Source: Gammaproteobacteria bacterium
GTDB taxonomy: Bacteria; Pseudomonadota; Gammaproteobacteria; SZUA-229
Assembly: GCA_026195895.1 (NCBI GenBank)
Contig: JAPHRO010000030.1
Location: 23,910 to 87,909, forward strand
Reading direction: 5' to 3'
Length of the DNA stretch: 64,000 nt
Below are positions 5,637-58,487 of this stretch, piece by piece. Made by a program: the position numbers and the translations under genes. Within the stretch, counting starts at the first letter, position 1. Each line of letters begins with the position of its first letter. Under the pieces are notes generated by a model, which searched no databases, had not been told where the DNA came from, and saw nothing but the letters and a program-made list of their open reading frames with translations.

Positions 5637-6125
5637 TTAATTTGACTGTTGCCTGGTCAGGCTAATAACAACGGTGAAATAGGCAGCTATCACCCCCAGT
5701 ATCAAAGCTGAAACATCCAGCATATCAAAATGGCCATAGATAAAATAATTGGCGATAGCGTGATTAAACCAGTCGGGTAGTATGTCAATAATAGAGTCCG
5801 TCATTGATGGTTGCTGACCAATTTCAAATAGCAACTCTACCACCAGCCAGAAAATACAAATCAGACGCAGAGTTATAATATTTGCAGAAATAACCGCAGT
5901 GCTTAAAAGAATAAAAGCATAAATATGCAGAAAAGAGGGTATTGAGTAAATGATGCTGTTCGAAAAGACCTGCGGCATGAGATTTGTTTCCGGCAGGTAA
6001 TTGAGGAAAAGTGGTTGTTGGTGTAATCGAGTTGTGAGATATAACAACACACCTGTTAATAGCGCCGAAAGTGCTGCTACTAACAGGAGTGTCCTGTTCT
6101 TATTTGTCCATTTATATTGAATCAT
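5637..6125 (-). CDS. Small integral membrane protein, unknown function
   Basis: About 160 aa from MIQYKW…; four hydrophobic helices. The ORF-track start at 6188 overlaps the upstream gene, so the internal Met at 6125 is preferred. Immediately downstream of the PKD-repeat protein on the same strand. Confidence 0.45.
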   Translation of the reverse strand: MIQYKWTNKNRTLLLVAALSALLTGVLLYLTTRLHQQPLFLNYLPETNLMPQVFSNSIIYSIPSFLHIYAFILLSTAVISANIITLRLICIFWLVVELLFEIGQQPSMTDSIIDILPDWFNHAIANYFIYGHFDMLDVSALILGVIAAYFTVVISLTRQQSN

Positions 6126-6151
6126 TTTTCTGGCTGATGATTTGATTTCTA

Positions 6152-7834
6152 TTAAGGGCAATCTCCTGGGTTTGCGCCGCAACGGCAACCGCTAAGGGTT
6201 TCAATTTGAACTTCGGCCATAACGGTACCCGTAAAGGCGGCATCAATTCGGTAATACATGTTATCCGCAATATTACGCACCACGAAGGATGGTGAGTTAA
6301 TATCGCTAATCGGATTTGCATGGCTTCGACTAAATTCTTCCCAAACCGCAGGAAGAAGTATCGTGAATTCGGCCTGATCCGGGAAATTGGTGCCATCAGG
6401 AATTATGGCCTGATAAACCACCGAATCGGGAATGGGGCCACCTCCTGCTGTCGCGCTTATTTCATCACTGCCGGCTGCATCAATCTGAATATAAGTTGCC
6501 ACTTCACCCATGTCTGGTGCAAATGGCAAAGCGGTTACCAGCGACAGTGGCGTTGAGCAGGCGCCTGGTAAGCTGGTGGTGGATATACGAACAATATCCG
6601 GATAGCTATCATCAGTGCCATCATTGACCACTAGCCGAACCAGATAATTGCCATCACGATCCGGCGTGAGCTGAGTAGTTTGTGTGTCTAATGATGACAG
6701 GGCAGCCGTGCTTCCCGTCGGTTGTTTAATCAACGTCCAGACATAAGTGAGGGTTTGCATTTCGGGATCGCTGCTGCCATTGCCGTTTAAGTTGACAGTG
6801 ACCCCGGTGTTGACACTTTGATCGACGCCGCCATCGGCAATGGGTAGCTGATTATTGCTGGCGATGACGACCACGCGATCTTCGTAGATATCGTCCAGCG
6901 ATCGACTGCTGTCACGAAAGCCGTCGTTGACGCGCAGTCGAATCAGATAAGCGCCTGCGACATCGGCAATGAAAGAAGGCTGCATGCCTGTTTTATCGGT
7001 TAGCTGTGTGGAACTGCCCGTGGGTCGATAAAGCATGCGCCAGTTATAGGACAGGGGGTTGCCATAGGCGCTGTAACTGTTTTGGCCATTGAGTTGCACC
7101 TGGCTACCGATATTAACGAACTGGTCGGTGCCGGCTACGGCAACCGGTAGTGAAAAGTCGCTATTTTTTGATCGGATAATCACAGTATTGCTCGCACTAT
7201 CGACGGCACCATCATTGACGACCAGGTCGAGCATGTAATCAGTATCGCTATCAGCAACAAATGTGGTTGTGGCTGATGTTGTGCTGGAAAGTGTGGCTGA
7301 AGCAGAGCCTGGCTGGAAACTCCAGTTATACGACAGTGAGTTATCGTCGGCATCGGTCGCAGTGCCATTGAGTTGCACGGTGTCACCGACGCTCACTTCC
7401 TGGTAGGCGCCCGCTTCGGCAACCGGTCTGGCATTGCCGGTATAGGCGGTGATTCTGGTGGTGATCGATTCCTGGTTGGCGCCCGTTGAAGTTTTCAGGG
7501 TAGCAACATATTCGCCGTCTACATCCGCTATAAAACTGCTCATCATGGTGAAATCAGTCAGGACACTGCTGCTATCTGCAGGTTTGGAGGTTAATTGCCA
7601 GATAAAATCCAGATAGGCGGTATCGGGTGCGGCTTCGGTGAAATCGCTACAGCGTCCATCCAGAATGACTCGCGAGCCGGTGCGCACGTGCTGGCTTTTT
7701 CCGATGCACGATAGGGTGGTTTGTGTATAGCTATTGCTACCGGTGCCAATAATACTAAGCAGTCCAACGGCAACTACAACACCCAGTGCAGAAAATTGAA
7801 TTAAAAATTTGTAGATACTGGATCGATTTTTCAT
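6152..7834 (-). CDS. Secreted protein with four PKD/Ig-like repeat domains
   Basis: 560 aa; signal peptide (FSALGVVVAVGLLSIIGTGS); repeated ~90-aa modules each ending L(V/R)VNDG..D(S): LDLVVNDGAVDSAS, LRVNDGFRDSS, LVVNDGTDDS, plus a first degenerate copy; C-terminal Cys-rich tail CRCGANPGDCP. Confidence 0.65.
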   Translation of the reverse strand: MKNRSSIYKFLIQFSALGVVVAVGLLSIIGTGSNSYTQTTLSCIGKSQHVRTGSRVILDGRCSDFTEAAPDTAYLDFIWQLTSKPADSSSVLTDFTMMSSFIADVDGEYVATLKTSTGANQESITTRITAYTGNARPVAEAGAYQEVSVGDTVQLNGTATDADDNSLSYNWSFQPGSASATLSSTTSATTTFVADSDTDYMLDLVVNDGAVDSASNTVIIRSKNSDFSLPVAVAGTDQFVNIGSQVQLNGQNSYSAYGNPLSYNWRMLYRPTGSSTQLTDKTGMQPSFIADVAGAYLIRLRVNDGFRDSSRSLDDIYEDRVVVIASNNQLPIADGGVDQSVNTGVTVNLNGNGSSDPEMQTLTYVWTLIKQPTGSTAALSSLDTQTTQLTPDRDGNYLVRLVVNDGTDDSYPDIVRISTTSLPGACSTPLSLVTALPFAPDMGEVATYIQIDAAGSDEISATAGGGPIPDSVVYQAIIPDGTNFPDQAEFTILLPAVWEEFSRSHANPISDINSPSFVVRNIADNMYYRIDAAFTGTVMAEVQIETLSGCRCGANPGDCP

Positions 7835-23375: not shown

Positions 23376-24495
23376 TCAGTTTAGACAGAATCAGGGCGGT
23401 GAAAGCCTGACAGCACGGATCGTGCAATTGTTGCACATGGATCCATTACTGCTGATGGGGATATTTCTGCTCACCGCGACCGGCATGGGCGTGCTATACA
23501 GTGCCGGCGATCAGTCGATTGCATTAATCAACCGGCAAACAACCCGTCTGGTACTGGCGTTTGCGGTCTTGCTCATCCTTGCTCAAATCCCCCCGTCTAC
23601 CTATCGCTTCTGGTCGCCCTGGATATACGGTATCGGGGTGATTTTACTGGTGCTGGTGCTGGTGGCGGGTGATGTAGGTAAGGGTGCGCAGCGCTGGCTG
23701 GATCTCGGTTTTGTGCGATTTCAGCCATCTGAAATGATGAAGCTGGCAACACCGATGATGGTTGCCTGGTTTTTCTCGGAACGGCCTTTGCCGCCAAGCT
23801 ATAAATCGTTATTAGTTGCGGCCACGCTGCTCATTGTGCCGACCCTGTTAATTGCCAGGCAGCCGGATTTGGGAACCTCATTGCTAATTTTTGCAGCGGG
23901 TTTTTTTGTTATTTTTCTTGCCGGTTTAAGCTGGCGGCTGATTGTTGTGTTAGGCATAGCAGGGGCATCGTTATTGCCGGTGCTCTGGCACTTCATGCAC
24001 GAATATCAGCGCAATCGGGTGCTGACTTTTCTGGATCCGGAACGTGATCCACTGGGGGCCGGCTACCATATTATCCAGTCTAAAATCGCCATCGGTTCCG
24101 GCGGTATTTATGGCCGAGGCTGGATGAATGGCAGCCAGTCGCACCTTGATTTTCTACCTGAGCAGTCTACGGATTTTATCTTTGCGGTTTTCGCAGAAGA
24201 ATTTGGGCTGTTGGGCGGCATAGTGTTATTAAGTCTGTACGGTTTTATTATTATACGAGGACTGATAATCGCCGCGCAGGCACAGGATACTTATGGCAGA
24301 TTACTCGGAGGGAGTTTGAGTCTGACCTTCTTTGTCTATTTGTTTGTTAATGTGGGCATGGTCTCAGGCATTTTGCCGGTGGTTGGGGTACCATTACCCC
24401 TGATAAGCTATGGCGGTACATCGATGGTGACTCTGATGGCTGGATTTGGCATCCTGATGTCAATAAACTCACACCGACGATTGTGGTCAAAATGA
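23362..24495 (+). CDS. mrdB: Rod-shape-determining protein RodA (SEDS family)
   Basis: Collinear with E. coli RodA (…GAQRWLDLG.VRFQPSE…KIAIGSGG…GKGW…). Start chosen at MVGNNQ, overlapping the mrdA 3' end. Confidence 0.9.
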   Translation: MVGNNQFRQNQGGESLTARIVQLLHMDPLLLMGIFLLTATGMGVLYSAGDQSIALINRQTTRLVLAFAVLLILAQIPPSTYRFWSPWIYGIGVILLVLVLVAGDVGKGAQRWLDLGFVRFQPSEMMKLATPMMVAWFFSERPLPPSYKSLLVAATLLIVPTLLIARQPDLGTSLLIFAAGFFVIFLAGLSWRLIVVLGIAGASLLPVLWHFMHEYQRNRVLTFLDPERDPLGAGYHIIQSKIAIGSGGIYGRGWMNGSQSHLDFLPEQSTDFIFAVFAEEFGLLGGIVLLSLYGFIIIRGLIIAAQAQDTYGRLLGGSLSLTFFVYLFVNVGMVSGILPVVGVPLPLISYGGTSMVTLMAGFGILMSINSHRRLWSK

Positions 24496-38382: not shown

Positions 38383-39483
38383 ATGGTCGAATTACTTGCA
38401 AATATCTGGTCGGTTTATCTGGATACTGCCTTCTGGTTGCTGGTGGGCTTGATTGCAGCGGGCCTGGTCAAAGCCTATATACCGGAAGATGCCATGCAGC
38501 GCTGGCTGGGTGGTCGCGGTTTCTCCGCAGTAGGTCGTGCGGCCCTGTTCGGCGCACCTTTGCCTTTGTGCTCCTGCGGCGTGTTGCCTGCAGCACTGGG
38601 TATTCGCAGAAGCGGCGCCTCAAAGGAAGCGACGGTTTCTTTTTTGATTTCTACGCCTGAAACCAGCGTCGATTCCGTCGCGGTGACTTATGCCTTGATG
38701 GGGCCGGTGATGGCGGTGTACCGACCATTGGCTGCGCTACTGAGTGCGATAGTGACGGGCATGATGACAGTATATGTGGATGACGAAAGGGAGGCTGTAA
38801 GTGAGCCTGCAGAACCCTTATCTTGCTGCAATAAGGAAAAAACCGTCGAGTCGGCAACCGCTTGTTGCAGCAATAGCTCGACCCCGACCAATGGCACCGA
38901 TATCTGTTGCGGCACTTCGGCAAAAATCGCCACTAATCGTTTCAGGCAGGCACTGCAATTTGCCGGTAGCGAATTGCTGGACGATATTTCTAAATGGCTG
39001 TTTATTGGCATTGTAGCGGCAGGTGTAATGACCACGATCATACCCCCTGGCTGGCTCGAGCAATGGGGGCAGGGTGTATTGGCAATGCTGGTGATGGCTC
39101 TGATTGGAATACCTATGTATATCTGTGCGGTCGCTTCCACGCCGGTTGCTGCTGGCTTATTAGTCGCCGGTGTATCGCCGGGAACGGTGCTGGTGTTTTT
39201 ACTGGTGGGTCCGGCAACCAATATTGCGAGCCTCATTTTAATCAGCAGGGAACTGGGTCAAAAAGTCACTGCGGTATATCTGGCGGGTATTACTGTTAGC
39301 AGTATTGTTATGGGACTGATTCTTGACGGCCTGATCAGCAATATGGGATTTACAGTCATTGCTGAGATAGGTGATAGCCAACGCATGTTACCCGACTGGC
39401 TGGCTTTATCCAGTGCAATAATATTGTTGATACTTGCCGTGCCTTTTTTAAGAAATCGAGTGATACCATTTCTAAGATATTGA
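38383..39483 (+). CDS. DUF318 (ArsP/YraQ-like) permease with Cys-rich central loop
   Basis: 366 aa; two 4-TM halves; PLCSCGVLP (the CSC motif found in ArsP-type permeases); cytoplasmic loop CCNKEK….ACCSNSS….DICCG with three CC pairs. Confidence 0.7.
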   Translation: MVELLANIWSVYLDTAFWLLVGLIAAGLVKAYIPEDAMQRWLGGRGFSAVGRAALFGAPLPLCSCGVLPAALGIRRSGASKEATVSFLISTPETSVDSVAVTYALMGPVMAVYRPLAALLSAIVTGMMTVYVDDEREAVSEPAEPLSCCNKEKTVESATACCSNSSTPTNGTDICCGTSAKIATNRFRQALQFAGSELLDDISKWLFIGIVAAGVMTTIIPPGWLEQWGQGVLAMLVMALIGIPMYICAVASTPVAAGLLVAGVSPGTVLVFLLVGPATNIASLILISRELGQKVTAVYLAGITVSSIVMGLILDGLISNMGFTVIAEIGDSQRMLPDWLALSSAIILLILAVPFLRNRVIPFLRY

Positions 39484-39575
39484 AAAAAATAGAAATTTAT
39501 TTGGTTCTTGCTTTACAAGGCTAATCTTTCTGACTATAAAAAACAGCAATAATTATTATTCGAGCAGGGCCTGGT

Positions 39576-39950
39576 ATGTCTTTATTTAAAAAGAGTTTGT
39601 TTGTTTTAGTGGCTGGCAGCGTGTTGGTGGGGAATCTGGCTTTGGCCGAGGGCGTGTTTCAGGAAAGAAAACGTGCCGGACATGAGCTGACTGCGGCGGA
39701 GCAAAGACAGTTAACGATAGAGTTTTACGAAAAATTTGGACATCAGAAGTCATCACCGATCAAAAAATCCAATAATCCATGGCAGGCTAAAAAGCAGCGT
39801 AGCATGACGCAATCGCCAGCTATTAGCTGGGGTGAGTGTCGGGATTATGCGCTGCAAAAACGTAATAGCTGTTATAAACAGGGAAAGGATGCTTACAATT
39901 GTGAGCGTTTTTATGAGGCGCGGACACAGAAATGCAATCAGGATTTTTAG
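39576..39950 (+). CDS. Small secreted 4-Cys protein (paralogue of 54217..54597)
   Basis: 124 aa; signal peptide. C-terminal domain NNPWQAKKQ…CRDYALQKRNSCYKQGKDAYNCERFYEARTQKCNQDF aligns with NNPWASKKAKQ…CQQFALKQRNQCYAVGNDGSICELYYKARVGHCAEYF of the second copy. All four Cys are conserved. Confidence 0.6.
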   Translation: MSLFKKSLFVLVAGSVLVGNLALAEGVFQERKRAGHELTAAEQRQLTIEFYEKFGHQKSSPIKKSNNPWQAKKQRSMTQSPAISWGECRDYALQKRNSCYKQGKDAYNCERFYEARTQKCNQDF

Positions 39951-39981: not shown

Positions 39982-40359
39982 TTAGCTTAATAATTTATAA
40001 GACAGTATGGCGCCGGCAATATAGCAGGGAAGTATAAACAGAATAGCAAAAATTTTACTGTACCGGTCCATGTCCCTGTTTTCCTGTTCTGAGAGATCCG
40101 GGTAATTTGATGCTTTTATATACCTGAGTGCGTATTGATCCCAGGCGATCGCATAAACCAGGAAGGGCAGTACCATCCAGCTCAGTAGACCAGCCAGTTC
40201 CGGCTTCCAGTGAGCCGTTATGAAAACGATACCAATAGCACCGGAAAAGACTTCACCCAGGATATAGGCAATGCTTCGCTTATCAAGATAATCTTTGATA
40301 ATAGATATGAAGATAACAGCTGTCAGTACGACTAAATACGCAATCGCCCACCACGGCAT
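39982..40359 (-). CDS. Small integral membrane protein (4 TM), unknown
   Basis: 125 aa; four hydrophobic helices. Confidence 0.45.
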   Translation of the reverse strand: MPWWAIAYLVVLTAVIFISIIKDYLDKRSIAYILGEVFSGAIGIVFITAHWKPELAGLLSWMVLPFLVYAIAWDQYALRYIKASNYPDLSEQENRDMDRYSKIFAILFILPCYIAGAILSYKLLS

Positions 40360-40428: not shown

Positions 40429-41043
40429 TTACAAAGCCTGTTTAACTAAATAGTGCGATAGTTCCAGTGCGTGATTCTGTTCATCCGTCAGGTCATTATC
40501 ATCTTCCTGATCAAGATGATGCGTGGGTCTGGAATGGTCTTTTTGCAACAGAGTTTCCAGTACGGCGGACAAGGCATGTATACGTTCCTGCGCAATAACC
40601 AGTTCCAGCATCCGGCAAAAAGGTTTGAGCAGATCAATATATTCAATGCTGTGTACCAGGGGGAGTTGTAGCTCTTCGGTCTCACTGGTTTTATAGGCCA
40701 GTGGCTGATTATCTAAAATCGGTAAATTTTTTATTTTTATAACATCCAGTTCATTTCGGCTTTGTTTTATACAGATCAGCAGGTGCTTCAGGTGGGATTC
40801 GATTTCTTTACGTTCGGCATAACTGGTACGTTGTATAAACTGGTCTCGATTGGCGGTGATGGTGAGAAACTGGATAGCGAGATTGTCGAGGCTATTGATT
40901 AATGATTTGGAGCTATATTCGTGCTCGGGTCCAAATCGTAGTGAGGTATCGAATCCCGTCTGCTGCAAACTGATCAACAGGGAGTTATTGGCTGTTTTTA
41001 TATCAACAAGTAATGCATTGATCACCGCTATAGATTTAATCAT
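40429..41043 (-). CDS. Hypothetical cytoplasmic protein, unknown
   Basis: 204 aa; no TM; acidic C-terminus (…HHLDQEDDNDLTDEQNH…). Confidence 0.45.
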   Translation of the reverse strand: MIKSIAVINALLVDIKTANNSLLISLQQTGFDTSLRFGPEHEYSSKSLINSLDNLAIQFLTITANRDQFIQRTSYAERKEIESHLKHLLICIKQSRNELDVIKIKNLPILDNQPLAYKTSETEELQLPLVHSIEYIDLLKPFCRMLELVIAQERIHALSAVLETLLQKDHSRPTHHLDQEDDNDLTDEQNHALELSHYLVKQAL

Positions 41044-41362: not shown

Positions 41363-41785
41363 TTAATAGCTCGGGGGCTTATTAAGTATATAAATTACAT
41401 AGCCCGCGGCAATAAATTGGGAAAAATGCCCAATATTCTGTACCAGTTTCAGCAGGCGCAATGCGCGCTGGCTTTCTGGGGAATGCTGCCCTGAATGACT
41501 GGCGATGCCCTTTAGCAGGTGCATATTCGCAAATACATAGGTTGCGGCGAGAATAGCCAGGAGCAGGGCAGCCTGCTGGTTTTTGATCAATGCAGCAATC
41601 AGGCCGCCAAGTAAACACAGGGTACTATTTAAACGGTAAAAGCGTCGATAAATGAGTAGCTGTTGTTGCTGCTCGAGTTGTTGTGCGATAAGCGGTTTGT
41701 AAAGGATCGTCAGCAGTAGAAAACTACCCATTGTGCTGCCTGCAAATGCAGCGCTTACCAGTGTTAAAAAATCATAAAGATGCAT
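41363..41785 (-). CDS. Small integral membrane protein, unknown
   Basis: 140 aa; 3-4 hydrophobic helices; QQ-rich loop. Confidence 0.4.
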   Translation of the reverse strand: MHLYDFLTLVSAAFAGSTMGSFLLLTILYKPLIAQQLEQQQQLLIYRRFYRLNSTLCLLGGLIAALIKNQQAALLLAILAATYVFANMHLLKGIASHSGQHSPESQRALRLLKLVQNIGHFSQFIAAGYVIYILNKPPSY

Positions 41786-53770: not shown

Positions 53771-54216
53771 AATCTCGATGAATTAACCAAACAGGCGCAA
53801 TGCAGCAGCTGGTGACCACCAGTTGCCGCGTGCTACGCGCAGGTATCGAGCGGGTGGTGCTCTCGGCACTGGCTGCAATGGCCCGGGCTGGCGTTAGCTA
53901 TTCTGCTGCTGATGGAGCTGCATAAGCTGATCGGGCCAAATTGCGACAATCCAGCAATATAAGTAAATCAGAATAGTTTGATATTCTTCCGGCTTTATTC
54001 TAAAATCCCACCCATATTGTTCAGATACTATCTGGATGAGATCAGATTTAGGTGCCATGGGGCCTGTCCATACTGTCGCCGACTTAAGTCTACAAATGAT
54101 AAAAGCACTGCCAGTACCGCTGGTCTCGAGAGCATTTCCTTCGTAACTACCAGGAATCAAAACGGATTCAGGAATGGGAAATGCGTAGCTTTTAATCAAT
54201 TTTGTAAGGAATATTC

Positions 54217-54597
54217 ATGCACTTTACCAAAATATTAAGCACTGCGATTTCTACTATCCTGTTAATTTCTGTTATGTCGGGCGCTAATGCAGCGGGTACC
54301 GCGCAAAAACGCGTATTGAGCGATCAGGAAAAGCAAAGAATTGCCGCTGAGTTCAATCAGCATTTTCGTGCTACGGACTCAGGTTCGTACCAGAAATTGA
54401 ACAATAATCCCTGGGCGAGCAAAAAAGCGAAACAGAAAAGACATGCTGAAAAAATGCTCAGGTTGAGCGGCTCAATGGATAGCTGTCAGCAATTTGCGTT
54501 GAAGCAGCGTAACCAGTGTTATGCCGTAGGGAATGATGGTTCTATCTGCGAGTTGTACTACAAAGCCCGCGTCGGTCATTGCGCTGAGTATTTTTGA
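54217..54597 (+). CDS. Small secreted 4-Cys protein (paralogue of 39576..39950)
   Basis: 126 aa; signal peptide; shares NNPW.(A/S)KK…C..ALKQRN.CY..G.D…CE.(F/Y)Y.AR…C…F with the 39576 copy. Confidence 0.6.
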   Translation: MHFTKILSTAISTILLISVMSGANAAGTAQKRVLSDQEKQRIAAEFNQHFRATDSGSYQKLNNNPWASKKAKQKRHAEKMLRLSGSMDSCQQFALKQRNQCYAVGNDGSICELYYKARVGHCAEYF

Positions 54598-55308: not shown

Positions 55309-55363
55309 GCGCGTAGCATAGCATTGCTGGACGGTGTTTTTTTATAAACCAGATCAATTTATT

Positions 55364-56119
55364 ATGAATTTAAAAACAGTTTTAATTTGCCTGGCTATTT
55401 TTGCACTTGGTTCCCCGGTACAGGCAAAAGAAGTTAGAACCATAGAGACCGACGATGTTGATCTTGATGTGCGTATATTCCCTGCCAAAGGTAATGTTTT
55501 GCTGCTCGGCTTCCCCTGTGATGAAGGCAGAAGTATTGCGGAAGAAAAAACTGCGGCGGCATTGGCCGAAGATGGGGTGGAAGTCTGGATGCCGGATATG
55601 CTGTCGGCCTTCATGTTGCCCAAGGTGCGCAGTAGTCTGGCCAATATTTCGACAGATGCGCTGCTGGCCCTGATTGATGAAGCAACCAGTACCGGTAAAC
55701 GGGTTTACCTGATTGCCAGTGGCCCCGACACCGAGCTGGTCTTACGCGGTGCCAGTCAATGGGAACAGGGCCATAAAAATACTGCTCTGGCAGGCGCGAT
55801 ACTCATGTTCCCTCGTTTGTTCAAAGCAGAACCTGAGCCGGGGAAAATACCGGAATATGTCGATGCGGTAGGTAAAACCCGATTGCCTATCATGTTACTG
55901 GAAGGTGAGCGCACGCCCAATCGCTGGGGCATCAATACCCTGAGTGAAGAATTACAAAAAAGCGGCAGCACGGTGAAAGCGGAAGTGATCCCGATGGTGC
56001 GCGGTTATTTTTTTAAACGACAGGATGCTAACTGGTCAGAAGACGTGGTGACCTCGCAAATGGCGGGACTGATCAAAGTAAGTTTATTTTATCTTGAGGA
56101 AAAAGAAATCAATGATTAA
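55364..56119 (+). CDS. Secreted alpha/beta-fold-like protein, stand-alone copy of the N-domain of 57207..58487
   Basis: Start at MNLKTV… (signal peptide). …AGVEVWMPDMLSAFMLPKVRSS… and …TGKRVYLIASGPDTELVLRGASQW… parallel …AGVEVWMVDLAESLYLPRGPST… and …TGKTIALIGRSYSAIPVLRGVRDW… in the fused gene. No canonical GxSxG nucleophile motif. Confidence 0.55.
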   Translation: MNLKTVLICLAIFALGSPVQAKEVRTIETDDVDLDVRIFPAKGNVLLLGFPCDEGRSIAEEKTAAALAEDGVEVWMPDMLSAFMLPKVRSSLANISTDALLALIDEATSTGKRVYLIASGPDTELVLRGASQWEQGHKNTALAGAILMFPRLFKAEPEPGKIPEYVDAVGKTRLPIMLLEGERTPNRWGINTLSEELQKSGSTVKAEVIPMVRGYFFKRQDANWSEDVVTSQMAGLIKVSLFYLEEKEIND

Positions 56120-56615
56120 ACGTTTATTCGTTTTCGCTATGCTAGTTAGTGTGACTGGGTTATTGCAGGCAAGCAATCTGAAACCTTACACGGCCAAAGG
56201 CCCGACGCCCCCGTTAGTATTGCAGGATTTGCAGGGCAATCTCCATGACCTGAAAGATTATAAAGGCCAGGTGGTGCTGGTTCAGTTCTGGGCGACTTAT
56301 TGTACGCCCTGCCGGAAGGAAATGCCGTCAATGAACAAGATGATGAAAAAAATGGGCAATGTACCATTTAAAATTCTTGCCGTTGATATGGGCGAAACCA
56401 GAGCGGAAGTGACGCAGTTTGTTAATGAAGTAAAACCCGAGTTTACTATCCTGATGGATGAGTCAGGTAAAAGCATTGCTGACTGGCGTGTATTTGCCGC
56501 GCCTTCAAATTTTATTCTCGATCCCGAAGGTAATATTCGTTATACCCTGTTTGGTGGTGTGGAATGGGATTCCGATGAGCTGGTGGATAAATTAAAAGCC
56601 CTGGCGACCAGGTGA
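56094..56615 (+). CDS. TlpA/DsbE-family periplasmic thiol:disulfide oxidoreductase
   Basis: 173 aa; signal peptide; WATYCTPC active site; thioredoxin fold with cis-Pro region. Overlaps the 3' end of the preceding gene (likely start at MIKRLF, 56112). Confidence 0.8.
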   Translation: MRKKKSMIKRLFVFAMLVSVTGLLQASNLKPYTAKGPTPPLVLQDLQGNLHDLKDYKGQVVLVQFWATYCTPCRKEMPSMNKMMKKMGNVPFKILAVDMGETRAEVTQFVNEVKPEFTILMDESGKSIADWRVFAAPSNFILDPEGNIRYTLFGGVEWDSDELVDKLKALATR

Positions 56616-57206: not shown

Positions 57207-58487
57207 TTGACTACTATGCGTTTTTTACTGTTACTGATGAGTTTCTGGCTGGCTGCGGCTCAGGCTGCGACCCAGGAATCTGCAGATGAATTATCGATAG
57301 CGGTTGATGATCAGGAATTAAATGTAACTCGGTTTGGCGCCACAGGTGCTCGGCTGGTAATCTGGATTATGCCCGGCTTCGGCGAGCCGGATCGAATGAT
57401 TACCAGCGCACAGCAACTGGCGCAGGCCGGGGTCGAAGTCTGGATGGTCGATCTGGCAGAAAGTTTATACCTGCCCAGAGGGCCATCAACCATGCGTAGT
57501 ATTGATGGTCGCTATGTTGCTGCGTTGATCGAAGCCGCCCACAAACAAACGGGCAAAACCATTGCGTTGATCGGCCGCAGTTATTCCGCTATTCCTGTGC
57601 TACGTGGTGTGCGTGACTGGCAGCAGAGTCAGCAACGGGCGGGAGCAACTAAGGCCTATGTATCAGGTGTGCTGCTGTTTTCGCCTGAATTGTACGCAAC
57701 CATACCGGCGCTGGGCCTGGATCCGATATTTGAACCCATTGCTCAGGCGACCAATGTTCCGATCATGTTATTCCAGGCAGGTAAACGCGGTAATCGCTGG
57801 CAACTGGATAATTTATTATCCCGCTTGCGTTCAGGTGGTGCCCAGGTGTTTGTGAAAATCATGCCTGGTGTGACCGGATTGTATTATCACGAAGACAGTG
57901 CGCCGGAAACACTGGCCATGCTGCAGCAGATGCCTAATCAGATAATTAACAGTCTGCGCCTGCTGGAAAATATACCCACGCCGCTGGTTGCTTTGCCCTT
58001 GCCGAAGCAGGCCAAAGCAAAAGGCCGCGGGCTGGATAATGCATTAAAACCTTTCCAGGGTAATCCAGAGCCGCCGCCGATTGCGTTAATCAATGCCCAG
58101 GGTAAAAAGCTAATCCGTAAAGATTATCGCGGCAAGGTTACGGTGATGAATTTCTGGGCTAGCTGGTGTCGGCCCTGTGTTGAGGAAATCCCTTCGTTAA
58201 ATAATTTGCGTAAAGCAATGGCCGGTCGGCCGTTCGAATTAATTTCGGTAAACTATGCAGAAGATACCGAACAAATCACCGACTTTCTAAAAATGGTAAA
58301 AGTTGAATTTCCTGTACTACTGGATACCGATGGCTCCGAATCAGCAAAATGGAATGTACTGGTATTTCCTTCTACCTTTGTCATTGGTCCCGATGGGCGT
58401 ATAGTTTACGGATTAAACGGCGCGATTCACTGGGATAGTCCCGAAATCGTCACACAATTAAAAGCGTTGTTGCCGAAATCAAAATAA
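57207..58487 (+). CDS. Fusion protein: secreted alpha/beta-fold-like domain + TlpA/DsbE thioredoxin domain
   Basis: 426 aa; signal peptide; N-domain paralogous to 55364..56119; C-domain NFWASWCRPCVEEIPSLN…SVNY…FPVLLD…FPSTFVIGPDGRI… (classical CcmG/DsbE-like WCxxC). Confidence 0.7.
   Translation: MTTMRFLLLLMSFWLAAAQAATQESADELSIAVDDQELNVTRFGATGARLVIWIMPGFGEPDRMITSAQQLAQAGVEVWMVDLAESLYLPRGPSTMRSIDGRYVAALIEAAHKQTGKTIALIGRSYSAIPVLRGVRDWQQSQQRAGATKAYVSGVLLFSPELYATIPALGLDPIFEPIAQATNVPIMLFQAGKRGNRWQLDNLLSRLRSGGAQVFVKIMPGVTGLYYHEDSAPETLAMLQQMPNQIINSLRLLENIPTPLVALPLPKQAKAKGRGLDNALKPFQGNPEPPPIALINAQGKKLIRKDYRGKVTVMNFWASWCRPCVEEIPSLNNLRKAMAGRPFELISVNYAEDTEQITDFLKMVKVEFPVLLDTDGSESAKWNVLVFPSTFVIGPDGRIVYGLNGAIHWDSPEIVTQLKALLPKSK

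Follow-up and report, generated by a model that had tools for sequence, protein, structure and literature searches.

The 64,000-nucleotide (nt) stretch analyzed here (the window; contig JAPHRO010000030.1 of a Gammaproteobacteria bacterium, positions 23,910 to 87,909) contains two genes, copy A at 39576..39950 (+) and copy B at 54217..54597 (+), for small proteins with four conserved cysteine residues. On balance, and with only somewhat better than even confidence, both products are considered to be exported by the Sec pathway, cleaved, and folded oxidatively into a hairpin, which would yield a rigid, basic, and soluble periplasmic mini-protein that acts by binding. The gene for copy B is additionally preceded by a structured leader RNA. 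Leader RNA and protein family were both previously without description or annotation.

Copy A codes for a precursor of 124 amino acids (aa) (OQL06_08060) and copy B for one of 126 aa (OQL06_08145), both listed at NCBI as hypothetical proteins of a Gammaproteobacteria MAG, on a contig of 104.5 kb. Both open reading frames (ORFs) start with ATG, and they end with TAG and TGA, respectively. A previous reading of this DNA, done from the sequence only, had regarded them as a paralogous pair with all four Cys aligned and had named a proper pairwise alignment as the test of this claim. BLASTP reproduced the similarity from end to end, with 58.9 bits (E = 3e-17), 37/127 identities (29%), and three small gaps over nearly the full length, and Cys 88/99/109/120 of copy A were in register with Cys 90/101/111/122 of copy B. 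The conserved motif given in the sequence-only reading exists, but its register was slightly off: it should read C-x3-AL-(QK/KQ)-RN-x-CY, and the NNPW region is NNPWQAKKQR in copy A and NNPWASKKAK in copy B. Both proteins end in Phe, as had been stated, but the family as a whole does not, because the terminal residue of other members is Tyr or Leu (the latter in one whole subclade) or the aromatic residue is missing. A C-terminal Phe as a signal of the outer membrane protein or DegS type was rejected for this reason.

The family is divided into an A-type clade, with copy A, the loci L001 and L003 to L009, and many of L018 to L056, and a B-type clade, with copy B, L002, L010 to L016, and many others, which can be recognized by QKLNNNPW and by an insertion, ML-x-LS. 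Copy B shares 41 to 43% identity with the products of L010 to L016 versus about 30 to 33% with A-type proteins. Database entries identical to both proteins exist, and copy A has in addition 17 close relatives with 47 to 67% identity. A third copy in the window was not found by tblastn. The metagenome-assembled genome (MAG) HER19_SLT_250_bin_4_1 contains both an A-type and a B-type gene (L007 and L010, respectively), which indicates that the duplication is old; judged from the sequences, copies A and B are true paralogues that arose from it. The ratio of nonsynonymous to synonymous substitution rates (dN/dS) was 0.04 to 0.26 for ortholog pairs with unsaturated dS, so that genes of this family are under purifying selection.

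The domain with the four Cys, a twin-CX10C alpha-hairpin according to the model and the alignment, covers residues 85 to 124 of copy A (39828..39947, +; Cys 88, 99, 109, and 120) and, by alignment with A, about 54475..54594 (+) in copy B (Cys 90, 101, 111, and 122). The spacing C-x10-C-x9-C-x10-C was present in 36/36 complete members with zero insertions or deletions, and this core is shared even by distant relatives that possess the hairpin only, which agrees with the conserved C-terminal four-Cys domain claimed before. AlphaFold2, used with a 20-sequence alignment, predicted four helices behind the signal peptide of copy A, at residues 40 to 54, 68 to 77, 85 to 101, and 106 to 123. The predicted local distance difference test (pLDDT) values were 91 to 95 over the last two helices of the full-length model. 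When the C-terminal 48 residues were modeled alone, they again gave a helix-turn-helix, with a mean pLDDT of 89.9 and about 96 in the helices. Facing residues of an antiparallel hairpin have a constant sum of their positions, and 88 + 120 and 99 + 109 both equal 208. Residues C88, R96, C99, C109, Y113, and C120 were invariant over 27 diverse members and A92, L93, E110, and R116 among closer members; A92, R96, Y113, and R116 are at the predicted helix-helix interface. With most invariant residues at this interface, the conservation looks structural and unlike that of an exposed active site.

The hairpin-only relatives P0038 to P0040, which are secreted proteins on a distant side branch, contain six Cys in the arrangement C-x3-C-x6-C-x9-C-x6-C-x3-C. 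Their third Cys pair takes the place of A92 and R116, and 92 + 116 is also 208. This additional pair in register provides independent support for the register of the helices and for a disulfide ladder. P0040 has a second, degenerate or partial hairpin repeat in tandem; these sequences suggest that the hairpin may be a mobile and duplicable module of a superfamily that is wider than sampled here. Within one helix, the two Cys are 11 residues or about 16 Å apart in the model, which renders one metal site shared by all four Cys geometrically implausible. Two structural disulfides or a metal site had been offered as alternatives in the sequence-only reading. The first part agrees with the hairpin, the sums of 208, and the third pair, while the second part conflicts with the geometry. 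Neither a CxxC or CPC motif nor a conserved cluster of His or Met residues was found in the family alignments. The model favors structural disulfides over a single metal site, and the pairing should be C88-C120 and C99-C109 in copy A and C90-C122 and C101-C111 in copy B.

In front of the hairpin, copy A has a predicted Sec signal peptide (residues 1 to 24, MSLFKKSLFVLVAGSVLVGNLALA; 39576..39647, +), in which a basic n-region precedes a hydrophobic core and an AxA site; cleavage between ALA and EG is predicted from sequence and alignment, A24 and G26 being invariant or almost invariant. For copy B, the signal peptide comprises residues 1 to 25, with predicted cleavage between ANA and AG. All approximately 60 genes of the family that were examined start with ATG and code for a Sec-type signal peptide with n-region, core, and AxA-type site, and in none of them was a lipobox present. 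The description as small secreted proteins is consistent with these data, from which we infer the export itself. The mature forms of A and B should have about 100 residues, with isoelectric points (pI) of 9.4 and 9.5, respectively, and are poor in His and Met. Their N-terminal halves contain further conserved elements, namely, (G)VF immediately behind the site of cleavage, a helix L(S/T)xxEQxQ(I/L)xxEFxxxF, and the NNPW motif (residues 66 to 69 of copy A; 39771..39782, +) followed by a basic helix (AKKQR). N67, P68, W69, and K72 were invariant among 20 close members in the alignment. The hairpin-only relatives are without the (G)VF, L(S/T)xxEQ helix, and NNPW elements, with NNPW missing in the most distant ones, P0033 and P0038 to P0040. 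The N-terminal helix, the NNPW turn, and the basic helix may be clade-specific additions to the hairpin core.

These features can be combined into a model for the function of the proteins. The precursors would leave the cytoplasm through the Sec pathway, and signal peptidase I would remove their signal peptides. In the oxidizing periplasm, the C-terminal 40 residues would fold into an antiparallel two-helix hairpin, which two inter-helix disulfides would staple, with the Cys residues as structural rungs and neither as a metal site nor, probably, as a catalytic redox center. The stapled hairpin would form the conserved rigid core, and the role of the protein would most likely be that of a non-enzymatic, chaperone-like binding or scaffold module in the periplasm. 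Four points weigh against this assignment. A binding or scaffold role is the default that follows from absent catalytic or metal motifs. The predicted template modeling score of the full-length AlphaFold2 model was just 0.53, so that the predicted packing of the N-terminal helices on the hairpin is of low confidence. Hairpins of the CHCH type can be redox active, as in the case of COA6 (PMC6946597), and purely structural disulfides are not guaranteed as a consequence. Finally, the ancestral position of the A-type gene next to a gene for a Cu/Zn efflux permease, which is described below, could represent a facultative functional link. Probability that is assigned neither to a stapled binding module nor to the four rival explanations considered below goes to something else.

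Word-indexed database searches yielded 17 clusters when started with A and 3 when started with B. The profile search with the family that had been proposed was done exhaustively with HMMER against 1.84 billion representative proteins; it gave 21 clusters at E ≤ 0.001, and none of these had an informative name or was assigned a Pfam domain. Scans for loci were performed with the alignment A1, so that members with a retained NNPW or WGECRD motif are favored; they resulted in 13 loci in species-representative genomes, all of them MAGs of uncultured Gammaproteobacteria, and 44 further loci in metagenomes. The isolate names of the 13 MAG loci suggest sand, mud, and groundwater samples as sources. 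A scan of viral contigs, in which an association with phages was looked for, gave no loci. The family is real, without annotation, and narrowly distributed, and its importance is limited by its rarity and its occurrence, to date, in uncultured Gammaproteobacteria only.

That the family had not been recognized in the sequence-only reading was justified, and the possible membership in a known family with an assigned function was not found in Pfam, NCBIfam, PDB, PADLOC, or PHROGs. Pfam and NCBIfam produced no match at cut-off for A and B and only sub-threshold, inconsistent scores; PADLOC gave nothing for either protein, and the best PHROG match (E = 0.033, copy B) was insignificant. A search of PDB sequences with the full-length profile had 0 matches at E ≤ 10 and one with the hairpin profile a single irrelevant match. 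DUF6413 and DUF3811 were the sole Pfam models with repeated weak scores across 27 members. DUF6413 (PF19951) scored weakly on the hairpin in 7/27 members, with a best E value of 0.0023 and 19.1 bits versus a cut-off of 28.1 bits, 12.7 bits for copy A, and no match for the six-Cys relatives. It was rejected because it was below the gathering cut-off in every member; the literature located for it concerns fungal plant pathogens. DUF3811/YjbD (PF11656) scored weakly on the N-terminal half of 3/27 members (best E = 4.7e-4; copy A, 16.1 bits versus a gathering cut-off of 23.5 bits) and was rejected likewise, being below the cut-off and reaching a probability of 3% when the family profile was compared by hhalign with Escherichia coli YjbD.

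The leader of copy B is about 200 nt long (54013..54216, +) and has a core at 54091..54185, as delimited by a covariance model. All of its elements are on the plus strand. In the direction of transcription, these are the hairpin S3 (54044..54091), the invariant box 1, CAAATGATAAAAG (54093..54105), the hairpin S4 (54111..54123), box 2, GCATTTCC (54132..54139), which is the 5' strand of the long-range helix S5, the variable hairpin S6 (54154..54169), which is enclosed by S5, box 3, GGAAATGC (54177..54184), as the 3' strand of S5, and the Shine-Dalgarno sequence AAGGAA (54206..54211). Across the family, the invariant boxes are CAAATGAT(Y)AAAG, CATTTCC, and GGAAATG. S5 pairs CATTTCC with GGAAATG, and in the window, L002, and L044, this pairing is maintained by the compensatory pair GCATTTCC/GGAAATGC. 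The sequence of S3 varies between lineages, with the stem being kept.

The leader was found at approximately 28 related loci, for instance, L046:275-527 and L015:5516-5768. The covariance model R1, built from 13 training leaders, recovered 12 leaders outside the training set with E values from 1.6e-13 to 3.3e-6, and a second model, R2, from 21 leaders with the window excluded, found the leader in the window at 54091..54185 with 34.2 bits (E = 6.8e-6). In an alignment of 25 leaders, which was fitted to the structure of the model, 93.2% of the cells were standard pairs versus 32 to 45% in slid controls. Both sides were changed in 21/35 pairs, all 11 pairs of S3 covaried, the covariation score was 0.259 versus at most 0.054, and 0/500 shuffles matched the observed values. 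The leader is thus located between promoter and ATG on the strand of the gene and contains compensatory helices. Rfam had no match at gathering score in the window, nothing relevant at E ≤ 10 on 53950..54260, and nothing where the leaders of L046, L015, and L012 are located. The B-type leader is, on the covariation described, a candidate for a new class of cis-regulatory RNA. It resembles riboswitch-like leaders by its position between promoter and Shine-Dalgarno sequence, its compensatory helices, and its three invariant boxes, and it differs from them by the missing Rfam match and by the small secreted protein as the sole class of downstream gene found. With its covariation, its invariant boxes, and no Rfam family, the leader can be tested directly and may be perhaps more useful than the proteins; we regard it as the most testable novelty of this locus.

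Two modes of action may be considered for the leader from its sequence. Box 2 could pair alternatively with box 1 or with box 3. A leader peptide could also be translated from an upstream ORF (uORF) that starts with an ATG in box 1 and reads MIKALPVPLVSRAFPS in the window (54095..54145, +). Elsewhere, the uORF (MIKA...) has 4 to 33 codons, and the same conserved nucleotides are in different frames depending on the locus. With length and frame varying and nucleotides conserved, the constraint should act mainly on the RNA. A helix between box 1 and the tail in front of the Shine-Dalgarno sequence was strong in the window and L002 only and was consequently rejected as a general feature. An ORF of 101 aa, initiated by TTG, on the opposite strand (53894..54199, −) overlaps with promoter and leader of copy B; it is probably no gene, given the conservation at the RNA level in this region.

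Two further sites with some similarity to RNA models were noted. Weak hits of both covariance models at 6043..6163 (−; 25.7 bits, E = 0.016) and 6048..6116 (−; 20.7 bits, E = 0.008) contain a box-1-like AAAUGGACAAA and an S4-like hairpin without S5, and overlap with the first codons (MIQYKWTNKNRTLLL...) of an ORF for a membrane protein; this site is probably due to chance and was rejected. At the 3' end of the B-type gene of L015 (L015:6137-6236, +), the Rfam model STnc100, which describes a gammaproteobacterial small RNA, scored 27.7 bits (E = 0.026; gathering score, 47), and this stretch may simply be a terminator.

Putative promoters could be assigned to both paralogues. A sigma-70-type promoter, TTTACA-N17-TATAAA, is located at 39512..39540 (+), 35 nt before the ATG of copy A. 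It was assigned by its match to the consensus and by its conservation, since TTTACA-N16/17-TATAA(A/G) ends 23 to 46 nt before the ATG in 24/28 A-type loci, including those without the permease gene. A conserved promoter of its own, also in loci without the permease, indicates that copy A is probably transcribed alone and with a short leader. For copy B, the promoter scan identified TTGATA-N17-TAAAAT at 53978..54006 (+) with a 10/12 match. The pattern TTGnnn-N16-18 with a −10 hexamer behind it, in most cases (TGC)TAAAnT, was present 180 to 280 nt (mostly 180 to 235 nt) before the ATG in 28/28 B-type loci under permissive pattern settings. The two paralogues would accordingly be regulated differently, A by a strong conserved promoter with a short leader and B at the post-transcriptional level, as implied by its structured leader of about 200 nt.

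Several alternatives to a stapled binding module need to be considered. The proteins may be periplasmic stress chaperones or signaling adaptors of the Spy/CpxP/ZraP type, which would bind unfolded envelope proteins or a sensor kinase. Similar size, a basic pI, the all-helical prediction, and periplasmic targeting by the Sec pathway fit to this possibility, and so does the N-terminal helix with its L-(S/T)-x-x-E-Q-x-Q start, which is reminiscent of the LTXXQ motif of this family. Another point in favor is the elaborate leader of copy B, from which conditional expression may be expected. However, no LTXXQ or Metal_resist model was matched in Pfam by 27 members at E ≤ 1, and no PDB chain sequence was found at E ≤ 10 with structures of Spy, CpxP, and ZraP being present in the PDB. 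Moreover, the conserved core here is a Cys hairpin, whereas the proteins of the Spy/CpxP/ZraP family, which form cradle-shaped dimers, are not known to contain cysteines. A function of this type is therefore regarded as unlikely.

The second alternative depends on the similarity of the hairpin to that of mitochondrial CHCH or twin-CX9C proteins such as Cox17, Mia40/CHCHD4, and COA6. CHCH proteins are described in PMC12114033 as antiparallel helix-turn-helix proteins with paired Cys motifs. COA6 with its motif Cx9C-xn-Cx10C reduces SCO1 and COX2, a task done in bacteria by thiol reductases (PMC6946597). Both groups comprise small soluble proteins in topologically equivalent compartments, with an antiparallel hairpin, two Cys per helix about three turns apart, and two predicted inter-helix disulfides. 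They differ in the spacing, which is CX10C in both helices of the family here without exception, in the cleavable Sec signal peptide versus the Mia40-dependent import, in the missing similarity at the sequence or profile level, and in the CPC or CC functional motifs, which this family does not have. Of the possible signs of a membership in the CHCH family, the general architecture alone fits, while profile, PDB sequence, spacing, export route, and lineage differ; searches by fold cannot tell hairpins of 40 residues apart. Wherever the source of a locus is named, it is a MAG of uncultured Gammaproteobacteria, which argues for a convergent and not an ancestral resemblance. By analogy, the hairpin may be filed as one that works like a CHCH hairpin by convergence without being a member of that family. 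The six-Cys relatives P0038 to P0040 with their C-x3-C...C-x3-C rungs plus an outer pair resemble also twin-CX3C hairpins. In small Tim proteins and plant alpha-hairpinins, the two helices of an alpha-hairpin are likewise connected by a ladder of disulfides. The main family here differs from them in spacing, organisms, and export route, and there is no homology.

If fold and disulfides are true, the family would be a bacterial periplasmic version of the stapled hairpin of the mitochondrial intermembrane space, and a convergent design would exist in topologically equivalent compartments, reached by another export route and in unrelated proteins. It would add a compact scaffold of about 40 residues, probably a very stable one, to the known small secreted proteins of bacteria.

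From this similarity, it could follow that the proteins are redox-active analogues of CHCH proteins, with disulfides that cycle, and act as periplasmic thiol-disulfide exchangers or as accessory factors in the handling of copper or the maturation of cytochrome oxidase. In addition to the twin-CX10C hairpin, which resembles the CHCH domain of COA6 (PMC6946597), this idea would fit the neighboring genes of A and B in the window. ORFs were called in the window and in 58 related loci and clustered, and representative neighbors were annotated. The neighbors had been described correctly before, with an ArsP_1/DUF318-type permease, a U32 gene, and a MerR gene in the vicinity of copy A and, in that of copy B, a dihaem cytochrome c with TlpA-like proteins; the U32 gene is that of TrhP, the tRNA U34 hydroxylase (770 bits). 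The meaning attributed to this adjacency was mostly not supported by the comparison, and no obligatory metal or redox partner was found in the 58 loci.

The permease gene at 38383..39483 (+) is located 92 bp upstream of copy A. Its product belongs to the SO_0444 family of Cu/Zn efflux permeases (NF033936, 435.8 bits with a cut-off of 300; Pfam ArsP_1) and is intact in the window, with a Cys-rich loop CCNKEK...CCSNSS...CCG. The ancestral A-type order is (SerB) TrhP (−), SO_0444-family permease (+), and A (+), followed 3' of A by genes for a 125-aa membrane protein (−, not at all loci), a 204-aa protein (−), a 140-aa membrane protein (−), and a TsuA/YedE-like sulfur transporter (−). At least 11 of the approximately 27 A-type loci have lost, replaced, or broken the permease gene and kept the small gene. 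It is missing in L021, L033, L034, and L043, where TrhP is directly 5' of the A-type gene, swapped for waaA/Kdo-kinase genes in L004 to L006 and L018, and split or a remnant in L001, L022, and L028; A-type gene and 204-aa neighbor are kept at all these loci. This suggests that the permease is dispensable in the A-type lineage, and an obligatory operon of copy A with the permease gene was rejected on account of the losses and the promoter of copy A. About 30 B-type loci are embedded among housekeeping genes in the order IMPase (−), NUDIX (−), HAD (+), B (+), a small ORF in parts, epimerase (+), a cupin in parts, HNH (−), and PpnN (−). The neighborhood with cytochrome c4 and TlpA occurs in the window and in L002 only, the protein of which is 71% identical, and a conserved linkage of B with TlpA and cytochrome c4 was rejected. 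The position next to metal or redox genes is lineage specific for B and facultative for A. Metal and redox neighbors are mostly not conserved, which corrects a weak conclusion from guilt by association.

A redox-active protein is, as a result, rather improbable. The ancestral arrangement of the A-type gene downstream of the Cu/Zn transporter and the dihaem cytochrome c and TlpA-like proteins beside copy B in the window and L002 may be in favor of it, but the housekeeping context of the other B-type loci, the repeated loss of the permease with retention of the A-type gene, and the separate promoter of copy A are against. There is also no relation to Pfam models of the CHCH clan at E ≤ 1 over 27 members or to chains in a PDB set whose CHCH content is unlisted, and the third Cys pair in register resembles extra stapling and not a catalytic pair. 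Independently arisen, Sec-exported CHCH counterparts that function in thiol redox or in copper and cytochrome maturation, with one paralogue under the control of a riboswitch-like leader that senses a related signal, would be the most novel scenario considered and are quite improbable.

A stapled cationic helical hairpin may alternatively be exported as an effector, toxin, or signal that acts outside the cell, similar to plant alpha-hairpinins or the helical-hairpin toxins of scorpions. The predicted cationic, disulfide-stapled alpha-hairpin would suit such a purpose, weak sub-threshold matches to bacteriocin and immunity models were obtained, and the small A-type protein is the fastest-evolving one in its block, with 42 to 67% identity versus about 80% for TrhP. 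On the other hand, 58 loci contained no dedicated exporter, immunity gene, or neighboring toxin system, the PADLOC, PHROG, and viral-contig results given above do not point to such a function, the genes keep stable chromosomal positions among housekeeping genes, and dN/dS is well below 1. This explanation is very improbable. The least probable of the explanations considered is a periplasmic buffer protein that holds Cu(I), Zn(II), or another thiophilic metal by four reduced thiols, for which the four invariant Cys, the ancestral place of the A-type gene beside a Cu/Zn efflux permease with a Cys-rich loop, and a MerR-family regulator nearby could be quoted, but Cys of the same helix about 16 Å apart cannot form one site, the rung spacing with the third rung in relatives is disulfide-like, conserved His or Met is missing, the A-type gene persists without the permease, and Cys pairs of Sec-exported proteins are normally oxidized in the periplasm.

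The remaining neighbors of both genes can be described briefly. The A-type genomes are closely related, as the about 80% identity of TrhP indicates, and shared synteny is weak evidence among them. The 204-aa soluble protein p204 is encoded as convergent neighbor of A at 40429..41043 (−) and was adjacent to the A-type gene at every A-type locus with a contig long enough. It had no match in Pfam, NCBIfam, PHROG, or PDB and a weak one to JetB in PADLOC (E = 0.0037), probably by chance. The membrane proteins of 125 aa (39982..40359, −) and 140 aa (41363..41785, −) 3' of A have no family assignment. Stop codons of the convergent genes at A-type loci can be as close as about 4 nt, as in L007. Near copy B, a 261-aa protein without a match in Pfam or NCBIfam clusters by BLAST with two adjoining TlpA-like proteins with thioredoxin fold. 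The genes at 55334..56119, 56094..56615, and 57207..58487 (all +) may thus represent a three-member TlpA-related array beside the dihaem cytochrome c, and this arrangement is conserved in L002.

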